A stretch of DNA of 64,000 bases from Candidatus Woesearchaeota archaeon (GTDB lineage: Archaea; Nanobdellota; Nanobdellia; Pacearchaeales; GW2011-AR1): assembly GCA_964448605.1 (NCBI GenBank), contig CAYUZV010000005.1, forward strand, positions 1,465 through 65,464, given 5' to 3'. The notes beneath the pieces were generated by a model. The model did not search any database and was not told the origin of the DNA. It worked only from the letters and a program-made list of their open reading frames with translations. The position numbers and the translations under genes are program-made. Shown piece by piece: positions 2,190-40,146 of the stretch (position 1 is the first letter of the stretch; every line of letters begins with the position of its first letter).

Positions 2190-2669
2190 ATGAAAGGAGG
2201 TTTGAAAAATATGATAAACAAAAGAGCTCAAGCACAGATTATTACAACTGTTCTGATTATTCTGTTGGTTCTTGCTGCTATTGTTATTGTTTGGCAAGTA
2301 GTTAGTGGAACTATTGAAGGGGGTGGTGAACAGATTCAATCTCAATCAGGTTGTATTGGTGTTAGTATGGAAGTTACAGATATTGTAACAACAAGTGGTT
2401 CTGAATCTATTACAGTTAGAAGAGGGCAGGGGGAAACTGAAACAAAAGTTACTGATTGCAAGGTTTTTGTTGATGGACAATTAGCAGGGACATGTAATGG
2501 AGCAAGTGGATGTTCTTATTCTGAATCATCTCCTATGAATCCTTTGGATACCTGTGTAGTTGATTCGCTTAGTCCAGCTCCGACTGCATCAAGTACAGTT
2601 TCTGTAGCTGCTCAGGTGGGTAATACTGTATGTGCTGCATCTGCAGATGTTTTAGCATCTAATTTTTAA
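2190..2669 (+). CDS. Class III signal peptide (type IV pilin/archaellin-like) secreted protein, copy 1
   Basis: N-terminus ..MINKRAQAQIITTVLIILLVLAAIVIVW has a basic stretch, a KRAQ cleavage-like site and a hydrophobic helix. SD AAAGGAGGT lies 8 nt before internal ATG 2211, the likely true start. The C-domain is Cys-containing and Thr/Ser-rich. Confidence 0.7.
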   Translation: MKGGLKNMINKRAQAQIITTVLIILLVLAAIVIVWQVVSGTIEGGGEQIQSQSGCIGVSMEVTDIVTTSGSESITVRRGQGETETKVTDCKVFVDGQLAGTCNGASGCSYSESSPMNPLDTCVVDSLSPAPTASSTVSVAAQVGNTVCAASADVLASNF

Positions 2670-2748
2670 TTTTTTATTTTTTTATAATTTTTAATTTATA
2701 ATTAGATTTATAAAGTAGATTTTCTTTTGTATTTATTAATAAAGAGAA

Positions 2749-3228
2749 ATGAAAGGAGGTTTGAAAAATATGATAAACAAAAGAGCTCAAGCACAGATTA
2801 TTACAACTGTTCTGATTATTCTGTTGGTTCTTGCTGCTATTGTTATTGTTTGGCAAGTAGTTAGTGGAACTATTGAAGGGGGTGGTGAACAGATTCAATC
2901 TCAATCAGGTTGTATTGGTGTTAGTATGGAAGTTACAGATATTGTAACAACAAGTGGTTCTGAATCTATTACAGTTAGAAGAGGGCAGGGGGAAACTGAA
3001 ACAAAAGTTACTGATTGCAAGGTTTTTGTTGATGGACAATTAGCAGGGACATGTAATGGAGCAAGTGGATGTTCTTATTCTGAATCATCTCCTATGAATC
3101 CTTTGGATACCTGTGTAGTTGATTCGCTTAGTCCAGCTCCGACTGCATCAAGTACAGTTTCTGTAGCTGCTCAGGTGGGTAATACTGTATGTGCTGCATC
3201 TGCAGATGTTTTAGCATCTGATTTTTAA
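2749..3228 (+). CDS. Class III signal peptide pilin-like protein, copy 2 (1 aa different from copy 1)
   Basis: 158 of 159 aa are identical to 2190-2669. It has the same SD and internal ATG (2770). Confidence 0.7.
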   Translation: MKGGLKNMINKRAQAQIITTVLIILLVLAAIVIVWQVVSGTIEGGGEQIQSQSGCIGVSMEVTDIVTTSGSESITVRRGQGETETKVTDCKVFVDGQLAGTCNGASGCSYSESSPMNPLDTCVVDSLSPAPTASSTVSVAAQVGNTVCAASADVLASDF

Positions 3229-3308
3229 TTTTTTATTTTTTTATAATTTTTAATTTATTCTTAAAATTTATAAACTAAGTTTTCCTTTAATTTTATTAAT
3301 AAAGAGGA

Positions 3309-3749
3309 ATGAAAGGAGGTTTGAAAAATATGATACTTAATAATAAAAGGGCACAAGCTCAAATAATAACTATAGTTTTAATTATTCTATTGGTTCTTGC
3401 AGGCATTGTTATTTTGTGGAATGTTGTTAGTGGGACTATTGAGGAGGGTGGTGAACAAGTAGAAGTTCAATCAGGATGTATTGGAGTTAACATGGAGGTT
3501 ACTAATGCTATTTTAGGTTCTGATACAGTTACTATAAGAAGAGGTCAGGGTGAAGAAGATTTGAGAGTTACAGGATATAAACTATTTGTTAATGGGGCAC
3601 TTGTTGATGAAGGAGATATTAATTTTGATCCTTTGGACACTTATGATGCAACTGGACTTAGTGCATTACAAGAGGGAGACAAAGTTTCTGTTGCTCCAAA
3701 AATAGGAACTACTATCTGCGCACCTTCTACAGAATATATTGTTGAATAA
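3309..3749 (+). CDS. Class III signal peptide pilin-like protein, diverged paralogue
   Basis: It shares MKGGLKNMI..KRAQAQIIT.VLIILLVLA.IVI.W.VVSGTIE.GGEQ...SGCIGV.MEVT with copies 1 and 2. The C-terminal half diverges. Confidence 0.7.
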   Translation: MKGGLKNMILNNKRAQAQIITIVLIILLVLAGIVILWNVVSGTIEEGGEQVEVQSGCIGVNMEVTNAILGSDTVTIRRGQGEEDLRVTGYKLFVNGALVDEGDINFDPLDTYDATGLSALQEGDKVSVAPKIGTTICAPSTEYIVE

Positions 3750-31806: not shown

Positions 31807-31935
31807 TTTTAAGGTAGTAATTTTTAATATATAAAAATATATTTGATGGAAGATAGAGGTTTAGAGAGGTATGAGAAATGAGAACATTTTAACACTAGTG
31901 AAAATTTAGGATAAAAGAGGGCTTCCAGCCATCAA

Positions 31936-32010
31936 TGAGCCATCCAGGATTTGAACCTGGGACCCCCACCTTATAAGAGTGGTGCTCTAACCTGGCTGAG
32001 CTAATGGCTC
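31936..32010 (-). tRNA. tRNA-Ile (UAU)
   Basis: Acceptor GAGCCAT/ATGGCTC, D arm GCTC..GAGC, anticodon arm CCACT-CTTATAA-GGTGG (anticodon TAT) and T arm CCAGG-TTCAAAT-CCTGG. Confidence 0.85.
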
Positions 32011-32217
32011 ATACACTAAAATCAATATATTTCTTAGTTTTAAAGTTATTGGTTTGAGAAATTCCGAGCCGGACTTCAAACTCCCAAGCTTGTTCGTTAT
32101 ATGTTGTTATTTAATCTCGCAAACTTGCTCGTAAGGCTCTCCACAAAATATTGGTAAGTGAAAAATTTTATTGGTATAAAATATATCTTACTTAAAATTA
32201 AACCTAAAAAATAGTTA

Positions 32218-32634
32218 TCAAATCTCTTCTTTTGATTCTTCAAGATTTTCTTCAGCTTCATCTTCAGGTTGAGCCATTTGCATTATTTCACCTTCTTCCT
32301 GAATTTCTTTTTCTTCTTTTTCTTCTATTTTTTCTTTTTGTTTTTCAGTTTCTTCTGCTGTTTTTTCTTTTTCTATTTTTTCTTTTATCTCTTCTTCTGT
32401 TAATTTTTTTACTTCTTTTTCAGATTTTTTGGGAAGAGGTCTTTTAACAGTTATAGGAAGAACATCTGCATTAAGTTCTCTTTCGGAAATCTTGAGATTA
32501 TCAAAATTCAGGTCATCCTCTTCTTCAGGAGTTAGTTTTAATAAAATTGGAGCCCCCATTGCTAATTGCAAACTTCTTGCTCCTAAAATCCTTGCAATTT
32601 CATATTTTGTAAATTTTTCTTCCAGGTTTTGCAT
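32218..32634 (-). CDS. rpoK: RNA polymerase subunit Rpo6 (RpoK) with long Lys/Glu-rich C-terminal tail
   Basis: The N-terminal 60 aa (FTKYEIARILGARSLQLAMGAPILLKL) form the Rpo6 core. About 75 aa of EK-rich low-complexity sequence follows. Confidence 0.75.
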   Translation of the reverse strand: MQNLEEKFTKYEIARILGARSLQLAMGAPILLKLTPEEEDDLNFDNLKISERELNADVLPITVKRPLPKKSEKEVKKLTEEEIKEKIEKEKTAEETEKQKEKIEEKEEKEIQEEGEIMQMAQPEDEAEENLEESKEEI

Positions 32635-32662: not shown

Positions 32663-33472
32663 TTATTTCATTTGTTTAAATAATTCCGGGAATAATCTAT
32701 CGTAGGCTTTTTCTGTTTCAGAGATTATATTGTTTAATTCGTCTATTGTTATTTCTTTTATTTCACCTTTTTGCATTGAGTTTATTATTTTTTCTTTTTT
32801 TGGTTGTGAAACTGCTATTGTTAATCTTGCTTCTGCTGAATCTTCTTCTTCACGAGTAGGATCAAGTATGAATGAATCTTCAATTTTGTAAAAAGTCAAT
32901 TGCAATGAGACATTATCTGTTAAGGGTATTGGATTTTTTGTGAATTCTCCGAATTTTACTGCTTCTTCTTTTTCATCATAAACTGGAAGTTTTGCTATTT
33001 TTAGGGCTGTTAGTGCTCCGATTGCTGCTGCATCTAAAACATTTCCATCATCATTTATTGCATAAATGTCTACCATTACTGACCATACTTTTTCTCCTTT
33101 TTTAATGCATAGTTTTTTAAAATCAATAAATCCACTTTCTCTTAATCCTCTGTCCACAACTCTTGCGACTTCAATTGCATCCATTTTTGGAGGTCCTGAA
33201 TCATATCTTTCCCCACAAATTGGTGAAAATTCCATTGAAGTCATCATTGTTCCTTCATCATCATGGTCTGGGTAAGGTTCCTGAACTCCCATTTTAACTC
33301 CTACAATAACTTCTGTTTTTCCTATTTTAATTCTTGCAGAACCTTCTGCCTTGTTTGAAATATCTTTTTCAATAGTAATTTCTCTAAAATCAAAAGGTTT
33401 TCTTCTGTCTAATCTTTTTCCTTCTTTTAATAATGTTTCAATTTTCTTTTTGTTTATATTTGGTATTTGCAT
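32663..33472 (-). CDS. rrp42: Exosome complex subunit Rrp42 (RNase PH-like, inactive)
   Basis: RNase PH fold pattern: R.DGR...FR...IE..V...A.GSA.IK.G.T.V..GVK. It follows rrp41. Confidence 0.8.
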   Translation of the reverse strand: MQIPNINKKKIETLLKEGKRLDRRKPFDFREITIEKDISNKAEGSARIKIGKTEVIVGVKMGVQEPYPDHDDEGTMMTSMEFSPICGERYDSGPPKMDAIEVARVVDRGLRESGFIDFKKLCIKKGEKVWSVMVDIYAINDDGNVLDAAAIGALTALKIAKLPVYDEKEEAVKFGEFTKNPIPLTDNVSLQLTFYKIEDSFILDPTREEEDSAEARLTIAVSQPKKEKIINSMQKGEIKEITIDELNNIISETEKAYDRLFPELFKQMK

Positions 33473-33473
33473 T

Positions 33474-34190
33474 TTATCTTTTGTCTCCTTCGTCTATTTT
33501 TTCTCCTTTAAGTGCTCTTTCCTGGTATTTTAATATTTTGTCACAGGCATTTTTTGCTGCTTCAATTGCTTCCCTGAATCTTGTTGTCTGGATTTTTCCA
33601 TCTAATTGTAAGTGAACTACATCTTTTTTTCTTGAAGTCATTGTGAATGGTATGTCTGTTGCACCTTCTCCTTCTTCATAATCTTCTTCTTCTTTTGTTA
33701 TGTCTGTAACTATTTTATCATCTATTTTTCCTATTGAAACACTTGAAACCATTTCTTTCATTACAACACCTGCCTGAGCAAGAGCCATTGCAGCTGCATT
33801 TATTGCTGCACATCTTGTTGATGCATTAGCTTGCAAAATCATTATTTGAACATCAATAACTGTTCCTGGAAATCTTTCTAAGTCAACTACATTTGAAAGT
33901 GCATTTGAAATTATCATGCTTATTTCTTTGCTTCTTCTGGAAGGTCCTGGTCTTGCTCTTTCTGCAACTGAAAATGGAAGCATATTATATTCACATCTTA
34001 TTATTCCTCTGTCTGGTTCCTGCATATGTTGAGGATGGAGTTGTCTTGGACCTCTAACTGCTGCAATAGCAGTTGTTTCTCCAAAAGCAAATAATGCAGA
34101 ACCTTCTGCACTTGGAATTATTCCAATTTCTGTTTTTATTGGTCTTAATTCATCCATTTTTCTTCCATCTGAACGTTTTGTGTATGGCAT
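33474..34190 (-). CDS. rrp41: Exosome complex exonuclease Rrp41 (RNase PH)
   Basis: R.DGRK.DELRPIK.E.G....A.GSA.F..G.T...AAV.GP and ..PFS..ER..PGPSRR..E. Confidence 0.85.
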   Translation of the reverse strand: MPYTKRSDGRKMDELRPIKTEIGIIPSAEGSALFAFGETTAIAAVRGPRQLHPQHMQEPDRGIIRCEYNMLPFSVAERARPGPSRRSKEISMIISNALSNVVDLERFPGTVIDVQIMILQANASTRCAAINAAAMALAQAGVVMKEMVSSVSIGKIDDKIVTDITKEEEDYEEGEGATDIPFTMTSRKKDVVHLQLDGKIQTTRFREAIEAAKNACDKILKYQERALKGEKIDEGDKR

Positions 34191-34191
34191 T

Positions 34192-34863
34192 TTATTCTTT
34201 TCCTCCTAAAAACTTTTCTATCTTTTCTGTTAATCCGTCTGAAATTGATTCTTGGACAATTAAATGAATTGCATTTTCTGCTTTTTTTTCACCTTGGTCA
34301 TCACCTTTCATCCAGATGAATCCGTTTTGTCCAACTGTTATATCTGTTTTTGTTTTGTTTTTTATTAAATTTATCATGCTTCCTTCTCTTCCAATTATTC
34401 TTGGAACTTTGTGAGGATTTATTTTTATTATTCTTCCTCCTTCTAATTTTCCTAATCCTCTTGATTTTAGTGTTAAATCAACTCCTCCTTTTTTAACACC
34501 CATTATTTTCATGCTTAAAACATCTCCGATGTCTGCGAATTGTGCTATATCATTTTTGTTTATGTATTTTGAACATTCTGATAAGGGTAGAAATGATGAA
34601 AAAGGTCCTCCGATATCAATCATCCAACCACTGAAATTTATATCTTCAACTCTTCCAATTACAGTGTTTCCTCTTCTTGGTTCAAAGATACCTGATACTG
34701 GGATTATTTTTACAACTCTTCCGTTTATTTCAGCAAGTCCGAATCTATGTGCAATTATTTCTTCACCTTCTTTTTTAGTAAAATCTCCTGGAAGATAATC
34801 GTCTCCAGATACAATTGTCTCTCCTGGAATTACTAATTTTCTTTCTGATTTTTCTTTTGTCAT
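34192..34863 (-). CDS. rrp4: Exosome RNA-binding subunit Rrp4 (S1 + KH)
   Basis: N-terminal domain VIPGE.I, an S1 region GNTVIGRVEDINFSGWMIDIG and a KH region KVPRIIGREGSMINLIK. Confidence 0.85.
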   Translation of the reverse strand: MTKEKSERKLVIPGETIVSGDDYLPGDFTKKEGEEIIAHRFGLAEINGRVVKIIPVSGIFEPRRGNTVIGRVEDINFSGWMIDIGGPFSSFLPLSECSKYINKNDIAQFADIGDVLSMKIMGVKKGGVDLTLKSRGLGKLEGGRIIKINPHKVPRIIGREGSMINLIKNKTKTDITVGQNGFIWMKGDDQGEKKAENAIHLIVQESISDGLTEKIEKFLGGKE

Positions 34864-35207
34864 TTTATTTCTCCTTTTAATCCTCTTTCCATGTAATCTA
34901 TTTCTGATTTTGTTCCTATTGAGTAAATAGCTCTTGAAGAATCTGCTCTTGGGGCTTCTGATTCGTAGAATATTTCATATGCCTTTCTAAATTGTTTACC
35001 TTCTAAACATTCTCTAAATTGGGTATAGGGATTGGTTCTTCTATTTTCTCCTTTTATTGCCTCATAAACTTCTCTTCTATGGACAGGAATTTCAGAAGGG
35101 GCGTCTATTGCTAATCTTATTTTATCTCCTCTTATATCTACAACAGTTACAATTATATCGTCTCCTATGATTATACTTTCGTCTTTTTTTCTTGATAGTA
35201 CTAGCAT
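34860..35207 (-). CDS. csrA: CsrA/RsmA-family RNA-binding protein with ~55-aa C-terminal extension
   Basis: MLVLSRKKDESIIIGDDIIVTVVDIRGDKIRLAIDAPSEIPVHRREVYEAIKGENRR aligns by eye along its full length with E. coli and B. subtilis CsrA. There is an ATGA overlap with rrp4 and a 1-nt gap after SBDS. Confidence 0.8.
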   Translation of the reverse strand: MLVLSRKKDESIIIGDDIIVTVVDIRGDKIRLAIDAPSEIPVHRREVYEAIKGENRRTNPYTQFRECLEGKQFRKAYEIFYESEAPRADSSRAIYSIGTKSEIDYMERGLKGEIK

Positions 35208-35208
35208 T

Positions 35209-35886
35209 TTATTCTTTCATCTCCTCAGTTATTGCTGAACCATGTGTTATTGAGTTTAATTTATCGTAAAATTCCATTTGAATGCCAATAGGTATATTTA
35301 AGGTTACCTCTAAGTCGCCGTTTGGAAGCCAGTCTTCTTTTTCTTTGTGTTCCTGGACTAATCCATAAACTCTTCCAGTATGCATTGCAGGTATTTTTAT
35401 TTTTATTTTTTTAGTTTCAATTTTTATAGGAATTATTCTTTTTAATGATTCTAAGATTTCATTTATTTGTTTTTCTATTGGGATGTTTTTTATACTTGCT
35501 CCTGCCTGCTTTATTGTGTTCTCTAAAATGTCTGGTGTGTAGGGTCTGCTTGTTCTTGGATCAACTGCATTTCTAGTCAGGAAATCTATTACTTGTTTTC
35601 TTTTTTGTTCTGTTTCTTCGTCTCTGAATTCTTGTGTGACTTCCAAATCTCCTTTTTGAATTATTTTTTTAACTATCTCCTGAAAATCAGTTGTGTTAAA
35701 TGCATTTTCAAGTTCTGCATTTCCTGCATGCATTCCTTTTTTTTGGTCTGTGTAAATTGCAGTATCTCTTATTATTTCACTCATATCCATATCTTCTCCT
35801 TTTTTGAGTTTCATTGCATTTTCTAAATCTACCATTGTTTCAAAAATTGATTTTCCTGCTCTTAGTCTTGCGATTGTGTCTGTCAT
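35209..35886 (-). CDS. sdo1: SBDS (Sdo1) ribosome maturation protein
   Basis: ARLRAGKSIFETMVDLENAMKLKKGED..EI......IYTD.KKG..A is the FYSH domain. Three-domain length. Confidence 0.8.
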   Translation of the reverse strand: MTDTIARLRAGKSIFETMVDLENAMKLKKGEDMDMSEIIRDTAIYTDQKKGMHAGNAELENAFNTTDFQEIVKKIIQKGDLEVTQEFRDEETEQKRKQVIDFLTRNAVDPRTSRPYTPDILENTIKQAGASIKNIPIEKQINEILESLKRIIPIKIETKKIKIKIPAMHTGRVYGLVQEHKEKEDWLPNGDLEVTLNIPIGIQMEFYDKLNSITHGSAITEEMKE

Positions 35887-36605
35887 TATCCAAACTCCTT
35901 TACTTCTTCAAGTGTTAGTTTTTTTAATTTTCCTTCTGTTTTTTTAATGTATGATATATTAAATCGGTTTATGTCGAAGTTTTCTTTTTGAAGTTCTTTG
36001 AAAATTTTTAGTGAGAGTTTTATTGCTTCATTGATTGTCATTTCTTTTTTGTATTCTTTTCTTAATTCTTCTTTGATTTTGTCGTCGTTTTCTCCGATTG
36101 CAACTGCATTGTATTCAAAGTAATTTCCAGTTATGTCACTTGTGAATAATTTGCTTTTTCCATTGTTTGTTCCTGCTATTATTAATGCTGCTCCAAAAGG
36201 TCTTACTCCTGGATGTTGAGTGTATTGTTGTTTTATATCTGAAATTTCTTTTATAATTGATTCTATGTCTATTGGAGTGTCGTAAGTTACTCTGTGTTGT
36301 TGGGCTGTTACTCTGATATGATTTACTAAGATTCTTGCATCACTTAGAATTCCTGCTGCTGTTGTGATTATGTGTTCATCTATTTCGTAGATTTTTTCTG
36401 CTGAATCTGAAACAATTAAAGAATCTTTTTTTCCTTTGTCTGAAATTATTACAACACCTTCTGAACAGTTTATACCTATGCTTGCTGTTCCTAAACGAAC
36501 TGTTTTTTCTGCATATTCAACTTGTAAAAGATGTCCATCTGGTGAGAACATTGTTGCACTTCTGTCATAGCCCATAACCTGATGCTGCATTTCTGGAATT
36601 TCCAT
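35886..36605 (-). CDS. psmA: Proteasome alpha subunit
   Basis: YDRSATMFSPDGHLLQVEYA...V..G....GI is the alpha-subunit N-terminal signature. SD GGAGGA lies upstream. Confidence 0.9.
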   Translation of the reverse strand: MEIPEMQHQVMGYDRSATMFSPDGHLLQVEYAEKTVRLGTASIGINCSEGVVIISDKGKKDSLIVSDSAEKIYEIDEHIITTAAGILSDARILVNHIRVTAQQHRVTYDTPIDIESIIKEISDIKQQYTQHPGVRPFGAALIIAGTNNGKSKLFTSDITGNYFEYNAVAIGENDDKIKEELRKEYKKEMTINEAIKLSLKIFKELQKENFDINRFNISYIKKTEGKLKKLTLEEVKEFG

Positions 36606-37090: not shown

Positions 37091-37131
37091 ACAAGAAAGA
37101 TTTAAAAATACAAGAATATGAGTTTTATCAT

Positions 37132-37203
37132 GCCTCGGTAGTTTAGTGGTTAGAATATGGCCCTGTCACGGCCAAGGCCCGAGTTCGATTCTCGGTCGGG
37201 GCG
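37132..37203 (+). tRNA. tRNA-Asp (GUC)
   Basis: Acceptor GCCTCGG/TCGGGGC, anticodon arm TGGCC-CTGTCAC-GGCCA and T arm CCGAG-TTCGATT-CTCGG. Confidence 0.9.
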
Positions 37204-37311
37204 TAGTACCATTTTGGCACATTGGTGGGACTCATTTTTGTATGGATATTGAGAAGAGTGAGAATTGAGGTGGCTGAGATGAGGATTAAACAAAAAATTT
37301 AAGTTTAATTG

Positions 37312-37363: not shown

Positions 37364-38380
37364 TTGTTTTTTGCAATTTCTATGGTATATATTTACAAAA
37401 AGAAAATCGGAAATAGGAATTATTATTACCTTAGGGCGTCTGAAAGAAAAAATGGAAAAGTGATGGTAAAAGATTTGTCATATTTAGGTAGCACTCTCGA
37501 AGAAGTAAGAAAAGCAATTGAAAATCTTCCAAAATATAAGAATGAGATAAGAAAAACTTACAAAACAATTCATAATTTTCTTGAGTCAAATAGATATTTA
37601 GAAAAAATAAGTAAGATGAAATTAAAACAAGATGATTTTCTAAAAGAAAAATTATTGAAAATTGAAGCTTGTAAAATGCATTATGAAAATGAATTTAATA
37701 AACAAGATTTTTTGACGAAAAAAGAAATATGGAAAAATTTCATAATTGAATATGCTTTTAATACTACATCTATAGAGGGAAATACCATAAATCTTGCTGA
37801 AGCAAAAGAATTGTTGGAAAATGAAAAAACTCCTAAAAATAAAACCTTGAGAGAGATTTATGATTTGCAAAATACAGAGAAGGTATTTAATGAATTAATA
37901 GAGGAGAGAGGGAAAATGACAAACGATTTTATTATAAGTATTCATAAAAAATTAATGGATAATATTGATAAGAGGGTTGGTTACAGAACCCAAGAGGTTA
38001 GAGTAATTAGGGCAAACTTTAAAGCAACTCCTGCACCTTATGTTAAAACAGATATGGATTTATTATTAAAATGGTATGAAGATAATAAAAAAAATCTTCA
38101 TCCTTTAGTTTTAGGAATTGTATTTCATCATAAATTTGAAAAAATACATCCATTTATGGATGGAAATGGTAGAACTGGAAGAATTTTGTTAAATCACATT
38201 TTGATAAAAAATAACTATCCGCCCTTGATTATAAAAAATAAAAATAGGAATAAATATCTGAGTAATATGAGAAAAGCAGACAAATCTGAAATTAGTAAAT
38301 TTAATATTGAAGATTATCAGGATTTAATTGATTTTGTTTCTAATGAAATGTTGGAGGGTTATTGGAATATATTTCTTTGA
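37364..38380 (+). CDS. fic: Fic-domain protein (AMPylase family)
   Basis: Canonical Fic motif HPFMDGNGRTGR within IVFHHKFEKIHPFMDGNGRTGRILLNHIL. The likely start is ATG 37382. Confidence 0.85.
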   Translation: MFFAISMVYIYKKKIGNRNYYYLRASERKNGKVMVKDLSYLGSTLEEVRKAIENLPKYKNEIRKTYKTIHNFLESNRYLEKISKMKLKQDDFLKEKLLKIEACKMHYENEFNKQDFLTKKEIWKNFIIEYAFNTTSIEGNTINLAEAKELLENEKTPKNKTLREIYDLQNTEKVFNELIEERGKMTNDFIISIHKKLMDNIDKRVGYRTQEVRVIRANFKATPAPYVKTDMDLLLKWYEDNKKNLHPLVLGIVFHHKFEKIHPFMDGNGRTGRILLNHILIKNNYPPLIIKNKNRNKYLSNMRKADKSEISKFNIEDYQDLIDFVSNEMLEGYWNIFL

Positions 38381-38683
38381 TTTATTAATTTAATTTCGAC
38401 AAGATTTATAAATTAAACTGCTCTAATCAATTTAATATAAATATAAACGGATAATTATTTCACCCACTTATATTGGCAAAATGCAGAGGTGTTCGGTCAG
38501 GTATGTTATCTTTTATGATTTTAATGAGTGGAATAATTTAAAATTGGGATTATTTATTCAAAAATACCTAAGATAAATTAAATTTGATTTATGTTTTGGA
38601 TTTATATCATAAGAAGAAACAATAAAGTTTTATGAAGGAATTTTTGTATGTGTTAAATGAATAATATTTGCCTTATTTCAAAA

Positions 38684-38754
38684 TGGGGACAGGGGGAATT
38701 CAACCCCCATTCCCGGCTCTGGAGGCCGGTGTATTAGCATTATACGATATCCCC
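38684..38754 (-). tRNA. tRNA-Trp (CCA)
   Basis: Acceptor GGGGATA/TGTCCCC, anticodon arm CCGGC-CTCCAGA-GCCGG and T arm GGGGG-TTGAATT-CCCCC. Confidence 0.85.
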
Positions 38755-38833
38755 AGTGTTATATTGGGAATTTTAACCTTTTAAAAGGTTTTGATTTTCG
38801 TTAGATATATAAATCTCTGTTTATTTTTAATTT

Positions 38834-39253
38834 ATGGAAATAATTTTAGATACAAATTTTATTGTATATTGTGCAAAAGAGAAACTTGATTATGTTGAAG
38901 AGATTGAGAAATTGTTTAATGAAAATTATGAAATAGTTGTTCCTAAACAGGTTATTGAGGAGCTTGAAAAAATTAAAGAGAAAAAGAAAGAGAGAATTCC
39001 TTTGTTTAAGAGAACTTCTCGTTATAGAAAAACGACTGGTCGTGATAAGAGGGCTGCTGATTTGGGTTTGCAGATTTTGGAGAAAAGTAGGATAAAAAAG
39101 ATTAATATTAAAGGTGAGAGTGTTGATGATGCGATTGTTAATTTAGGTAAAAAGGGAAATAATATTGTTGCTACACTTGATAAAGAGATGAGAGGTAGAT
39201 TAGATAGAGTGATTTTATTAAATAAAAATAAGAAGTTGATTTTGAGTAATTAA
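38834..39253 (+). CDS. PIN-domain ribonuclease, Fcf1/Utp24-like
   Basis: ILDTNFIVY (Asp 1), VVPKQVIEELE and IVATLDKEMR fit the Fcf1-type PIN pattern. Confidence 0.65.
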   Translation: MEIILDTNFIVYCAKEKLDYVEEIEKLFNENYEIVVPKQVIEELEKIKEKKKERIPLFKRTSRYRKTTGRDKRAADLGLQILEKSRIKKINIKGESVDDAIVNLGKKGNNIVATLDKEMRGRLDRVILLNKNKKLILSN

Positions 39254-40146
39254 TCGGGGAAAGATTGTTTGTAGTCAGGATAGGTTTGACATATTTTTCT
39301 GGTTAATTTTTCTATTGCTCTCTTATGTATCTGCATTATTCTTGGAGGAGATAAATTATATTCAACTCCGATTTCTCTGAAATTTAATTGAGGTGTGCCT
39401 TCTAAACCATATCTTTTTTTGATTATCTCTTTTTCCCTTGGGTTTAAAACTCCATTATTTACTAAATCCATTATTTCTATGCTTTTTTGAACCAGTTTTT
39501 CTAAGGGATTTTTTTCTTTTGAAGTTAATTGAAATGGAAAATTTTCATCATCAGGGTGAATCTTTACTTTTTTCTGCTGTATCAATCTCAACCATTTTAA
39601 ATGTTCTAATTTCACTCTTGGTCTTTTATTACTTTTTATGCCTTTTTTTTGCAAATAATCAAGCACTTCTTCAGGAGTGGGATTTCTTTGAGATTCTGAT
39701 TTTAAAATATCTTCTGCTTCTCTGATTTCAGGGATTTTACTTGCTATACCTCCTGGAATTTTTCCGAATTTTCGAGTTTTAAATGTCAGATATTTTACAA
39801 ATTCTGTTTCTAAAATTTTATGATAATAAGTTGCAAATTCACTTGTTGCATCATAATCTTTTGCAGTTATGCATCCTGCAAGATTGCATAATGACCTCAT
39901 TTCTTCAAGGTTGTCTTCAAAATCTTCTTTAGAAAGAAAGTTAGATTTTCTTGCTAATCTTCTTGCACTGCTTTCAAAAAGAGGAATATTGATTTCTATC
40001 AGCTCTTGTCTTGCATCATCATATAGTTGTTTGTATCTTCTTTCTAATTTAGGATTGTGTTTATTTAAAACATAAAAATTGATTATTCTTCCGAGATATT
40101 TGTTTCTATTTTTTATTTTTATTACTTCTTCGGATTTTAGTGACAT
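39250..40146 (-). CDS. Sigma-70-family-like protein (regions 2, 3 and 4 recognisable, divergent)
   Basis: LIEINIPLFESSARRL (r2.1-like), FATYYHKILETEFVKYL (r2.3/2.4-like), KIPGGIASKIPEIREAEDILKSESQRNPTPEEVLDYL (r3.0-like) and LNPREKEIIKKRYGLEGTPQLNFREIGVEYNLSPPRIMQIHKRAIEKLTR (r4.2 HTH). Confidence 0.7.
   Translation of the reverse strand: MSLKSEEVIKIKNRNKYLGRIINFYVLNKHNPKLERRYKQLYDDARQELIEINIPLFESSARRLARKSNFLSKEDFEDNLEEMRSLCNLAGCITAKDYDATSEFATYYHKILETEFVKYLTFKTRKFGKIPGGIASKIPEIREAEDILKSESQRNPTPEEVLDYLQKKGIKSNKRPRVKLEHLKWLRLIQQKKVKIHPDDENFPFQLTSKEKNPLEKLVQKSIEIMDLVNNGVLNPREKEIIKKRYGLEGTPQLNFREIGVEYNLSPPRIMQIHKRAIEKLTRKICQTYPDYKQSFPD

Follow-up and report, generated by a model that had tools for sequence, protein, structure and literature searches.

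A 64-kb stretch of DNA from a Candidatus Woesearchaeota archaeon (contig CAYUZV010000005.1; the whole stretch is referred to here as the window) carries, within an operon of proteasome, SBDS and exosome genes, a gene that encodes a member of the CsrA family. CsrA is a textbook global regulator of bacteria, and the csrA-like gene described here (34860..35207, minus strand) opens with an ATG and encodes a protein of 115 amino acids (aa) that consists of a CsrA core followed by a novel C-terminal tail. We favor the reading, with a probability of roughly 0.6, that this is a putative functional CsrA of Planctomycetota-like origin, acquired long ago in the Woesearchaeales/Pacearchaeales, that its tail was gained in archaea, and that the gene settled beside the exosome genes as an accessory element. 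The novelty lies in a genuine CsrA outside the bacteria, with a new domain appended to it and a genomic context that is conserved yet dispensable. A family-wide review from 2020 stated that CsrA had so far been detected exclusively in bacterial chromosomes and anticipated archaeal homologues from metagenomes (PMC7366521), and a survey from 2026 covered more than 20,000 CsrA homologues across the bacterial domain (PMC13443453). A groundwater metatranscriptome paper placed csrA among the genes highly expressed by ultra-small prokaryotes, with no archaeal assignment. A preliminary description of this DNA was aware of no archaeal role for CsrA, and our search of the literature likewise found no description of an archaeal CsrA.

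The window protein is a true member of the CsrA family, scoring above the curated cut-offs of the relevant hidden Markov models. Against Pfam CsrA (PF02599), for which the gathering score is 27, it reached 85.9 bits (E=1.8e-24), with residues 1-52 matching positions 1-52 of the 53 in the profile, and it passed both NCBIfam csrA equivalogs (NF002469, 86.0 bits with a cut-off of 73; TIGR00202, 81.5 bits with a cut-off of 70.1). The solved CsrA structures 5dmb_D, 1y00_A and 2bti_A aligned without gaps to residues 1-60 (E about 1e-13), and the CsrA-like portion comprises the first 52-58 residues. The preliminary description had aligned the protein with CsrA/RsmA by eye and had suggested a search with PF02599; the homology was borne out by these matches, and the coordinates and translation that it gave for the open reading frame (ORF) were exact. 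In the core (residues 1-56; 35040..35207, minus strand), the gap-free alignments to 1y00_A and 5dmb_D covered the beta1 segment with L2, L4, R6 and K7 and the V42-H43-R44 segment. These two residue sets, together with I40 and V47, include the positions L2, L4, R6 and K7 of beta1 and I40, V42, R44 and V47 around beta5, all of which are retained and which we take, from CsrA mutagenesis, to be the RNA-contact positions of the E. coli protein; the residues aligned with them are also kept in most of the archaeal orthologues.

The gene and its surroundings recur in relatives. A search of 5.8 billion proteins for csrA homologues gave thousands of bacterial CsrAs and a few longer proteins with a C-terminal tail of the window type (proteins and loci from the searches are numbered P and L below). 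A tail-bearing csrA directly follows SBDS in nine other sequence types, and in a tenth one ORF lies between the two; the loci come from independent ENA, Logan, JGI and NCBI assemblies, metagenome-assembled genomes of Woesearchaeota and Pacearchaeota included. The order is psmA-(74 aa)-SBDS-CsrA(135 aa)-CsrA(98 aa)-Rrp4 in L001-L004, from four different samples, psmA-SBDS-CsrA-Rrp4-Rrp41-Rrp42 on a 75-kb Pacearchaeota contig (L017), SBDS-CsrA in L005, L018, L019 and L020, and SBDS-(141 aa)-CsrA in L016, the locus with the intervening ORF. The csrA genes of L007 and L015 are likewise tail-bearing and adjacent to SBDS, and that of L012 is a tail-less copy. Two of the archaeal proteins, from a Pacearchaeota archaeon and an unclassified archaeon, already carry the automatic GenBank label 'carbon storage regulator'.

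The composition and the selection of the gene are those of a long-term resident. The GC content of csrA is 32.2% in a window of 29.8%, and its GC content at third codon positions is 15.5%, with values of 14-22% in its neighbors; from this, csrA has probably been resident in archaeal hosts long enough to acquire the host base composition. Between divergent archaeal orthologues, compared by the Nei-Gojobori method, nonsynonymous divergence (dN) in the core was 0.10-0.38 against a saturated synonymous divergence (dS) of at least 0.76, corresponding to a dN/dS of about 0.05-0.3, and a dN so far below the saturated dS argues for strong purifying selection on the core. The tail gave a dN of 0.41-0.69 and a dN/dS of about 0.3-0.7, with one pair above 1. 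The loci L078-L082, which are identical in nucleotide sequence, and L001-L004, which differ by at most 4 nt, were uninformative in this respect.

Since the same arrangement is present in independent assemblies and the composition of the gene resembles that of its neighbors, chimerism and contamination are excluded, and the two risks that the preliminary description had raised, a gene unique to one assembly and junctions created by chimeric assembly, do not apply. The suggestion that csrA is a bacterial contaminant, an assembly chimera or a recent, non-functional mobile passenger is already effectively refuted. It could draw on the patchy phyletic distribution, on the known travel of csrA on phages and plasmids (PMC7366521), and on 51 viral contigs in IMG/VR (L027-L077, with two copies each in L068-L070) that encode Planctomycetota-like CsrA core homologues, whose identity to the window core reaches 78%. 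None of these 51 viral loci, however, carries the archaeal-type tail or the archaeal operon genes, and no mobile-element genes flank csrA among the Pfam-searched ORFs of the window. Moreover, the same junctions recur across independent ENA, Logan, JGI and NCBI assemblies, strong purifying selection acts on the core of a gene whose composition is that of its neighbors, and the conserved extra domain is common to hosts that lie at psmA+SBDS+Rrp4 distances of 0.3-0.4.

The clade-specific tail occupies residues 57-115 (34860..35039, minus strand). In the alignment of relatives it follows the pattern F..L..G.F..A[YF]D[IM]FY.N, a variable loop and then G[TS]R.EID.M..GL, with F64, L68, A76, F80, E102, I103, D104 and M106 invariant or nearly so. 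The CsrA fold consists of five beta strands and a C-terminal helix and assembles into an interdigitated homodimer. An AlphaFold2 monomer model of the window protein placed strands at residues 11-14, 18-25 and 28-35 and a helix at 42-58 within a core of low confidence, followed by three tail helices at 60-69, 73-83 and 100-110, for which the block-mean predicted local distance difference test (pLDDT) was 82-89 when the whole protein was modeled and 75-90 for the tail by itself. A Foldseek search with the full-length model was uninformative (best E=0.25). When a tail-only profile was run exhaustively against 1.84 billion representative proteins, 11 matches were obtained, of which eight are proteins of 98-135 aa that combine CsrA with the tail. 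The remaining three (P0126, P0129 and P0130) are long repeat proteins that match only in a short [ST]K[ST]E[IV]D motif and were judged to be chance hits. The same judgment was made of the tail matches in Pfam and the PDB sequences, which were all insignificant (E=0.06-0.3, EF-hand proteins among them). A metagenome scan with the tail alignment mainly picked up the EVYEAIQRE helix pattern that ordinary bacterial CsrAs have, and the tail was present in none of its six loci. Since the tail has no significant match in Pfam, in the PDB sequences or among the PDB folds, and its profile is specific, we regard it as an invention of this clade; the C-terminal extension of about 55 aa for which the preliminary description recognized no counterpart is thus real and conserved among relatives.

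The core points to a Planctomycetota-like source. Archaeal cores share 50-91% identity with CsrA of the Planctomycetota type (82-91% in seven well-conserved members), compared with 43-54% for B. subtilis CsrA and 30-50% for E. coli CsrA and RsmA. The 56-aa core of the window protein is 86% identical to that of a 'Planctomycetes bacterium' protein (HIQ23043.1, P0077) and 41% identical to E. coli CsrA, and the named members of the closest bacterial group all belong to the Planctomycetota (Pirellulales, Botrimarina). The Planctomycetota proteins (P0077, and P0082 and P0114 from Botrimarina) reach up to 91% with other archaeal members and have in common with them the signature MLVLSR...VVDIRGDKVRLGI...EIPVHRREVYEAIQREN. 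They differ in being 65-90 aa long with short, low-complexity C-termini, none with the helical tail, and in their genomic context and domain of life. Several archaeal cores are nearer to Planctomycetota CsrA than to one another, which fits divergence from a Planctomycetota-like ancestor, and the close core homologues on viral contigs make a phage vector plausible. The CsrAs of phages and plasmids and the Legionella CsrT illustrate how csrA moves horizontally and is recruited to new regulatory contexts (PMC7366521). The archaeal gene departs from these mobile-element copies in its place in a housekeeping operon, in its ameliorated composition and in its tail, which the viral copies lack. We propose that an ancestor of a Woesearchaeales/Pacearchaeales clade (DPANN, Nanoarchaeota sensu GTDB) may have acquired csrA from a Planctomycetota-like bacterium, and that the three-helix C-terminal domain of about 50 aa would have been gained subsequently within archaea. 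Among the top database matches, P0002-P0020 are mostly single-chain tandem CsrA-CsrA fusions of 125-196 aa, and P0080 contains parts of three domains; such fusions would form a covalent pseudo-dimer.

On the minus strand of the window the gene order is psmA-SBDS-csrA-rrp4-rrp41-rrp42-rpo6, and the neighbors of csrA were confirmed with Pfam. The first gene of the operon, psmA, encodes the proteasome alpha subunit (35886..36605; Proteasome, Proteasome_A_N) and is followed by the SBDS/Sdo1 homologue (35209..35886; SBDS_N, SBDS_domain_II, SBDS_C). Downstream of csrA lie the genes for the exosome cap subunit Rrp4 (34192..34863; KH_6 and KH_1 above the cut-off, RRP4_S1 and ECR1_N_2 below it) and for the ring subunits Rrp41 (33474..34190) and Rrp42 (32663..33472), both with RNase_PH and RNase_PH_C domains. 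The last gene of the co-directional cluster encodes an RNA polymerase subunit with an RNA_pol_Rpb6 domain (32218..32634), which by our reading would be Rpo6/RpoK. A single base separates the TAA stop of SBDS from the ATG of csrA, an ATGA (34860-34863) contains both the stop of csrA and the start of rrp4, and a GGAG Shine-Dalgarno (SD)-like motif for rrp4 lies within the 3' end of csrA, 8-11 nt upstream of the rrp4 ATG (34871..34874, minus strand). To judge from these junctions, csrA is translationally coupled within the psmA-SBDS-exosome operon, and in this the preliminary description, which had reported the 1-nt spacing, the ATGA overlap and an embedded, coupled gene, proved exact on direct reading of the sequence. 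A scan of the operon for sigma-70-type promoters and intrinsic terminators gave nothing better than the shuffled level.

The same description had called the gene 'hard-wired' into the operon, which overstates the connection. A scan of the GTDB species representatives with an SBDS alignment gave ten loci, eight of them titled Woesearchaeota, Pacearchaeota, Nanoarchaeota or 'archaeon' and one titled 'bacterium'. A csrA lies between SBDS and rrp4 in three of the ten (one tailed copy in L007, two copies in L015 and one tail-less copy in L012); in the other seven the cluster is intact, with SBDS abutting rrp4 or within about 210 nt of it, and no remnant of csrA was found. The sole weak match in the seven lies within a 407-aa ORF that we read as enolase and not as a CsrA remnant. 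Conserved co-occurrence with rrp4, rrp41 and rrp42, as for an exosome subunit, was thus not seen for csrA in these ten loci. On a neighbor-joining tree of psmA+SBDS+Rrp4 with 200 bootstraps, carriers and non-carriers were intermixed: L006, which lacks csrA, paired with L015 in 200/200 bootstraps, L001, with two copies, paired with the csrA-negative L009 in 163/200, and the carrier L017 was nested in a clade of non-carriers (L011, L013 and L014) in 200/200. Because the tail is common to the carriers, we read this pattern as a single old gain of the gene and no fewer than three later losses. A further lineage, represented by P0133 and found on 15 contigs, has a tail-bearing csrA in the order Spt5-L11-L37ae-(45 aa)-prefoldin-beta-CsrA-SepF and not beside SBDS or rrp4, with FtsZ and SecE further upstream on one of the contigs. 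We place L37ae and prefoldin-beta among the distal genes of the classical archaeal exosome superoperon. The tie of csrA to the superoperon neighborhood persists, yet adjacency to SBDS and rrp4 is not obligatory, and csrA is an accessory gene, not a core component, that was lost repeatedly and relocated once.

Other small genes are found in the same places. The psmA/SBDS and SBDS/csrA junctions of relatives hold small lineage-specific ORFs of 74-141 aa (L001 2163-2387; L006 3601-; L007 5623-; L010 5142-/5428-; L011 5649-; L016 856-1281, the last with no Pfam match), and a weakly related ORF family of about 110 aa, absent from the window, occupies the rrp4/rrp41 junction (L001 4458-4787; L009 7398-; L011 7637-; pairwise E of about 3e-4 to 7e-4 when compared within a tiny database). 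Tandem csrA paralogues lie between SBDS and rrp4 in L001 (3068-3765, the first copy being P0121) and in L015 (6668-7351, the second copy with an unrelated tail), and these are probably independent duplications with subfunctionalization. The superoperon looks like a hotspot for small-gene insertion, and as unrelated small ORFs appear at its junctions in relatives, the operon may merely tolerate small insertions.

This possibility bears on whether the neighborhood of csrA reflects a physical association. As an adaptor of the exosome or SBDS, a CsrA dimer would dock through its tail on the Rrp4 cap, the Rrp41/42 ring or SBDS and deliver or shield transcripts with GGA or SD elements, as an additional subunit for substrate selection by the exosome. 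Such a role would suit the place that csrA takes, flanked by SBDS and rrp4, in the window and ten further tail-bearing sequence types, the overlap and the 1-nt spacing seen in the window, the confinement of the tail to these archaeal CsrAs and, if L37ae and prefoldin-beta are indeed distal superoperon genes, even the exceptional lineage. However, csrA is missing without remnants from seven of ten close species whose exosome operon is intact, only one member of each of the sister pairs L006/L015 and L001/L009 carries it, no N-terminal feature of Rrp4 correlates with its presence, the tail has no link in sequence or structure to a known exosome-binding motif, and the position may simply be permissive, considering the unrelated ORFs at the junctions. 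The adaptor role is argued from gene neighborhood alone, that is, through guilt by association, and we view it as an attractive minority hypothesis that is unlikely to be correct. It appears rather unlikely also in the specific form in which CsrA would be a true cofactor of RNA decay or ribosome maturation, the tail would dock a GGA-binding dimer on Rrp4, the ring or SBDS, and SD-like elements free of ribosomes would act as a signal for 3'-5' decay or as a shield from it. If the tail did dock in this way, a bacterial post-transcriptional regulator would have been rewired into an RNA-processing complex of the archaeal/eukaryotic type. Rrp4, Csl4 and DnaG are small RNA-binding proteins of the exosome that set its substrate preference. 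Their S1, KH and Zn-ribbon folds are unrelated to the beta-sandwich dimer of CsrA, and they are near-universal in exosome-bearing archaea, whereas archaeal csrA is patchy; rrp4 itself lies directly downstream of csrA and is apparently coupled to it.

An effect of CsrA on its own operon was considered as well. GGAG or AGGAG is found upstream of every internal cistron of the operon, and the final 25 nt of csrA contain two GGA motifs, which precede the rrp4 start by 10-22 nt. Bacterial csrA often autoregulates and often adjoins its main target, as in fliW-csrA-hag, and the archaeal protein might similarly bind the GGAG inter-cistronic junctions of its own transcript and thereby set the ratio of Rrp4, Rrp41 and Rrp42 to psmA and SBDS. 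We find such autoregulation distinctly improbable, given that the other csrA-positive loci do not preserve the GGA pair found ahead of rrp4 and that csrA-negative relatives have junctions of the same type. The clustering of GGA as a sign of CsrA targets or decoys was also rejected: the densest minus-strand windows fell in rrp4 and rrp42, and the enrichment in rrp4 arises because 23 of its 25 GGAs are in-frame glycine codons. No intergenic GGA cluster stood out in the window, and the operon-specific targeting tests (the GGA pair at rrp4, GGA density and codon usage) were negative.

Across the window, the SD-type octamer AAAGGAGG occurs 10 times, compared with 3.0 expected, and three of these occurrences are at tandem paralogous ORFs at 2.2-3.7 kb. 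These three paralogue-sized ORFs (2190-3749, plus strand; about 146-159 aa by ATG calls) have AAAGGAGG at each 5' end, and their true starts are probably a few nucleotides downstream of it. Two of the three were searched against Pfam and gave no match. All three, which the preliminary description had regarded as pilin-like, are candidates for the strong-SD targets of a GGA binder.

Under our preferred reading of csrA as a putative functional regulator, the gene would have settled between the SBDS gene sdo1 and rrp4 and become co-transcribed and translationally coupled with the proteasome-alpha, SBDS and exosome genes. By homology, the protein would form a CsrA-type dimer that binds GGA-containing, SD-like (A)AGGAG elements in mRNAs and alters the translation and/or stability of its targets, which is the most likely activity of the archaeal CsrA. 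Indirect evidence for such binding comes from SD-like AGGAG motifs, which are over-represented in the window and stand ahead of the internal cistrons of the operon. The operon position would ensure co-expression with the machinery of RNA decay and ribosome maturation and gives a hint of a functional link, and the helical tail could serve as the interface for a partner or antagonist, in place of the bacterial control by FliW or small RNAs (sRNAs). The most economical guess is that the tail is a protein-protein interface, because C-terminal extensions of Firmicute CsrAs bind FliW (PMC13443453).

The known bacterial systems delimit this proposal. E. coli CsrA and Pseudomonas RsmA (PDB 1Y00, 2JPP) belong to the same Pfam and NCBIfam families as the window protein, align with its residues 1-60 without gaps and keep the beta1 and V-H-R segments, but have no extra domain; in the Gammaproteobacteria these proteins are controlled by the CsrB and RsmY/Z decoy sRNAs, none of which was detected in the window. 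The FliW-controlled CsrA of Bacillus/Geobacillus (PDB 5DMB) was the best PDB sequence match to the window protein (E=7e-14), and its C-terminal extension past the core helix, which serves control at the protein level, provides a precedent for the tail as an interface (PMC13443453). That extension is shorter than the archaeal tail, which has three predicted helices and an unrelated sequence. To our knowledge, archaea have neither bacterial flagellin nor FliW.

Several observations weigh against a functional, Planctomycetota-derived CsrA with a tail for protein contacts. The block-mean pLDDT of the core in the monomer model was only 37-61 over residues 1-60, and the paralogue P0121 of L001 is altered at positions 4, 42 and 43 (L4, V42 and H43), so that its RNA binding may be non-canonical. 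The donor was assigned from a domain of 56 aa and a few named matches. A fold search of the PDB with the tail only gave a best E of 2.2 and faint TPR/PPR/ankyrin-like matches; the tail has no recognizable fold relative, which makes an interface role conjectural. A scan of the window at the Rfam gathering cut-offs yielded 7 tRNAs only and no CsrB/RsmY-type decoy RNA, and a scan of 27 window ORFs gave no FliW. Since the window covers just a portion of the genome, the absence of an antagonist, be it an sRNA or FliW, is provisional.

These data describe a clear archaeal CsrA lineage, under selection and repeatedly seen, with its own added domain and a place inside the exosome superoperon. It is a concrete example of how DPANN archaea, which use SD-led translation for operon-internal genes, have domesticated an RNA regulator from bacteria, and it could reveal how the specificity and control of CsrA are rewired where FliW and decoy sRNAs are lacking. 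The system is compact (about 110 aa), nature supplies tail-less variants as well as sister lineages with and without the gene, and it allows testing of whether sequence-specific adaptors guide mRNA decay by the archaeal exosome.

Some further features of the window are of note. The rest of the window looks archaeal, with genes for an IF2B/IF5-domain protein, ribosomal protein S24e, the alpha and beta subunits of Phe-tRNA synthetase and Met-tRNA synthetase. A protein of 298 aa that contains a bacterial Sigma-70 region 4 domain (39250-40146, minus strand; PF04545, E=1.1e-10) is a second bacterial-type regulator of gene expression on the contig. Just upstream of the superoperon, on the plus strand, lie genes for a Fic/DOC-family protein (37382-38380; E=2.9e-20) and a PIN-domain protein (38834-39253; PIN_9, E=1.8e-16), with a tRNA-Trp between them (38683-38755) and a tRNA-Asp just upstream of the Fic gene (37131-37204). 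Finally, a tRNA-Ile with the anticodon TAT (UAU) is encoded at 31935-32011 on the minus strand; the usual archaeal equivalent is a CAU-derived tRNA-Ile2, and the UAU trait is one reported for Nanoarchaeum.

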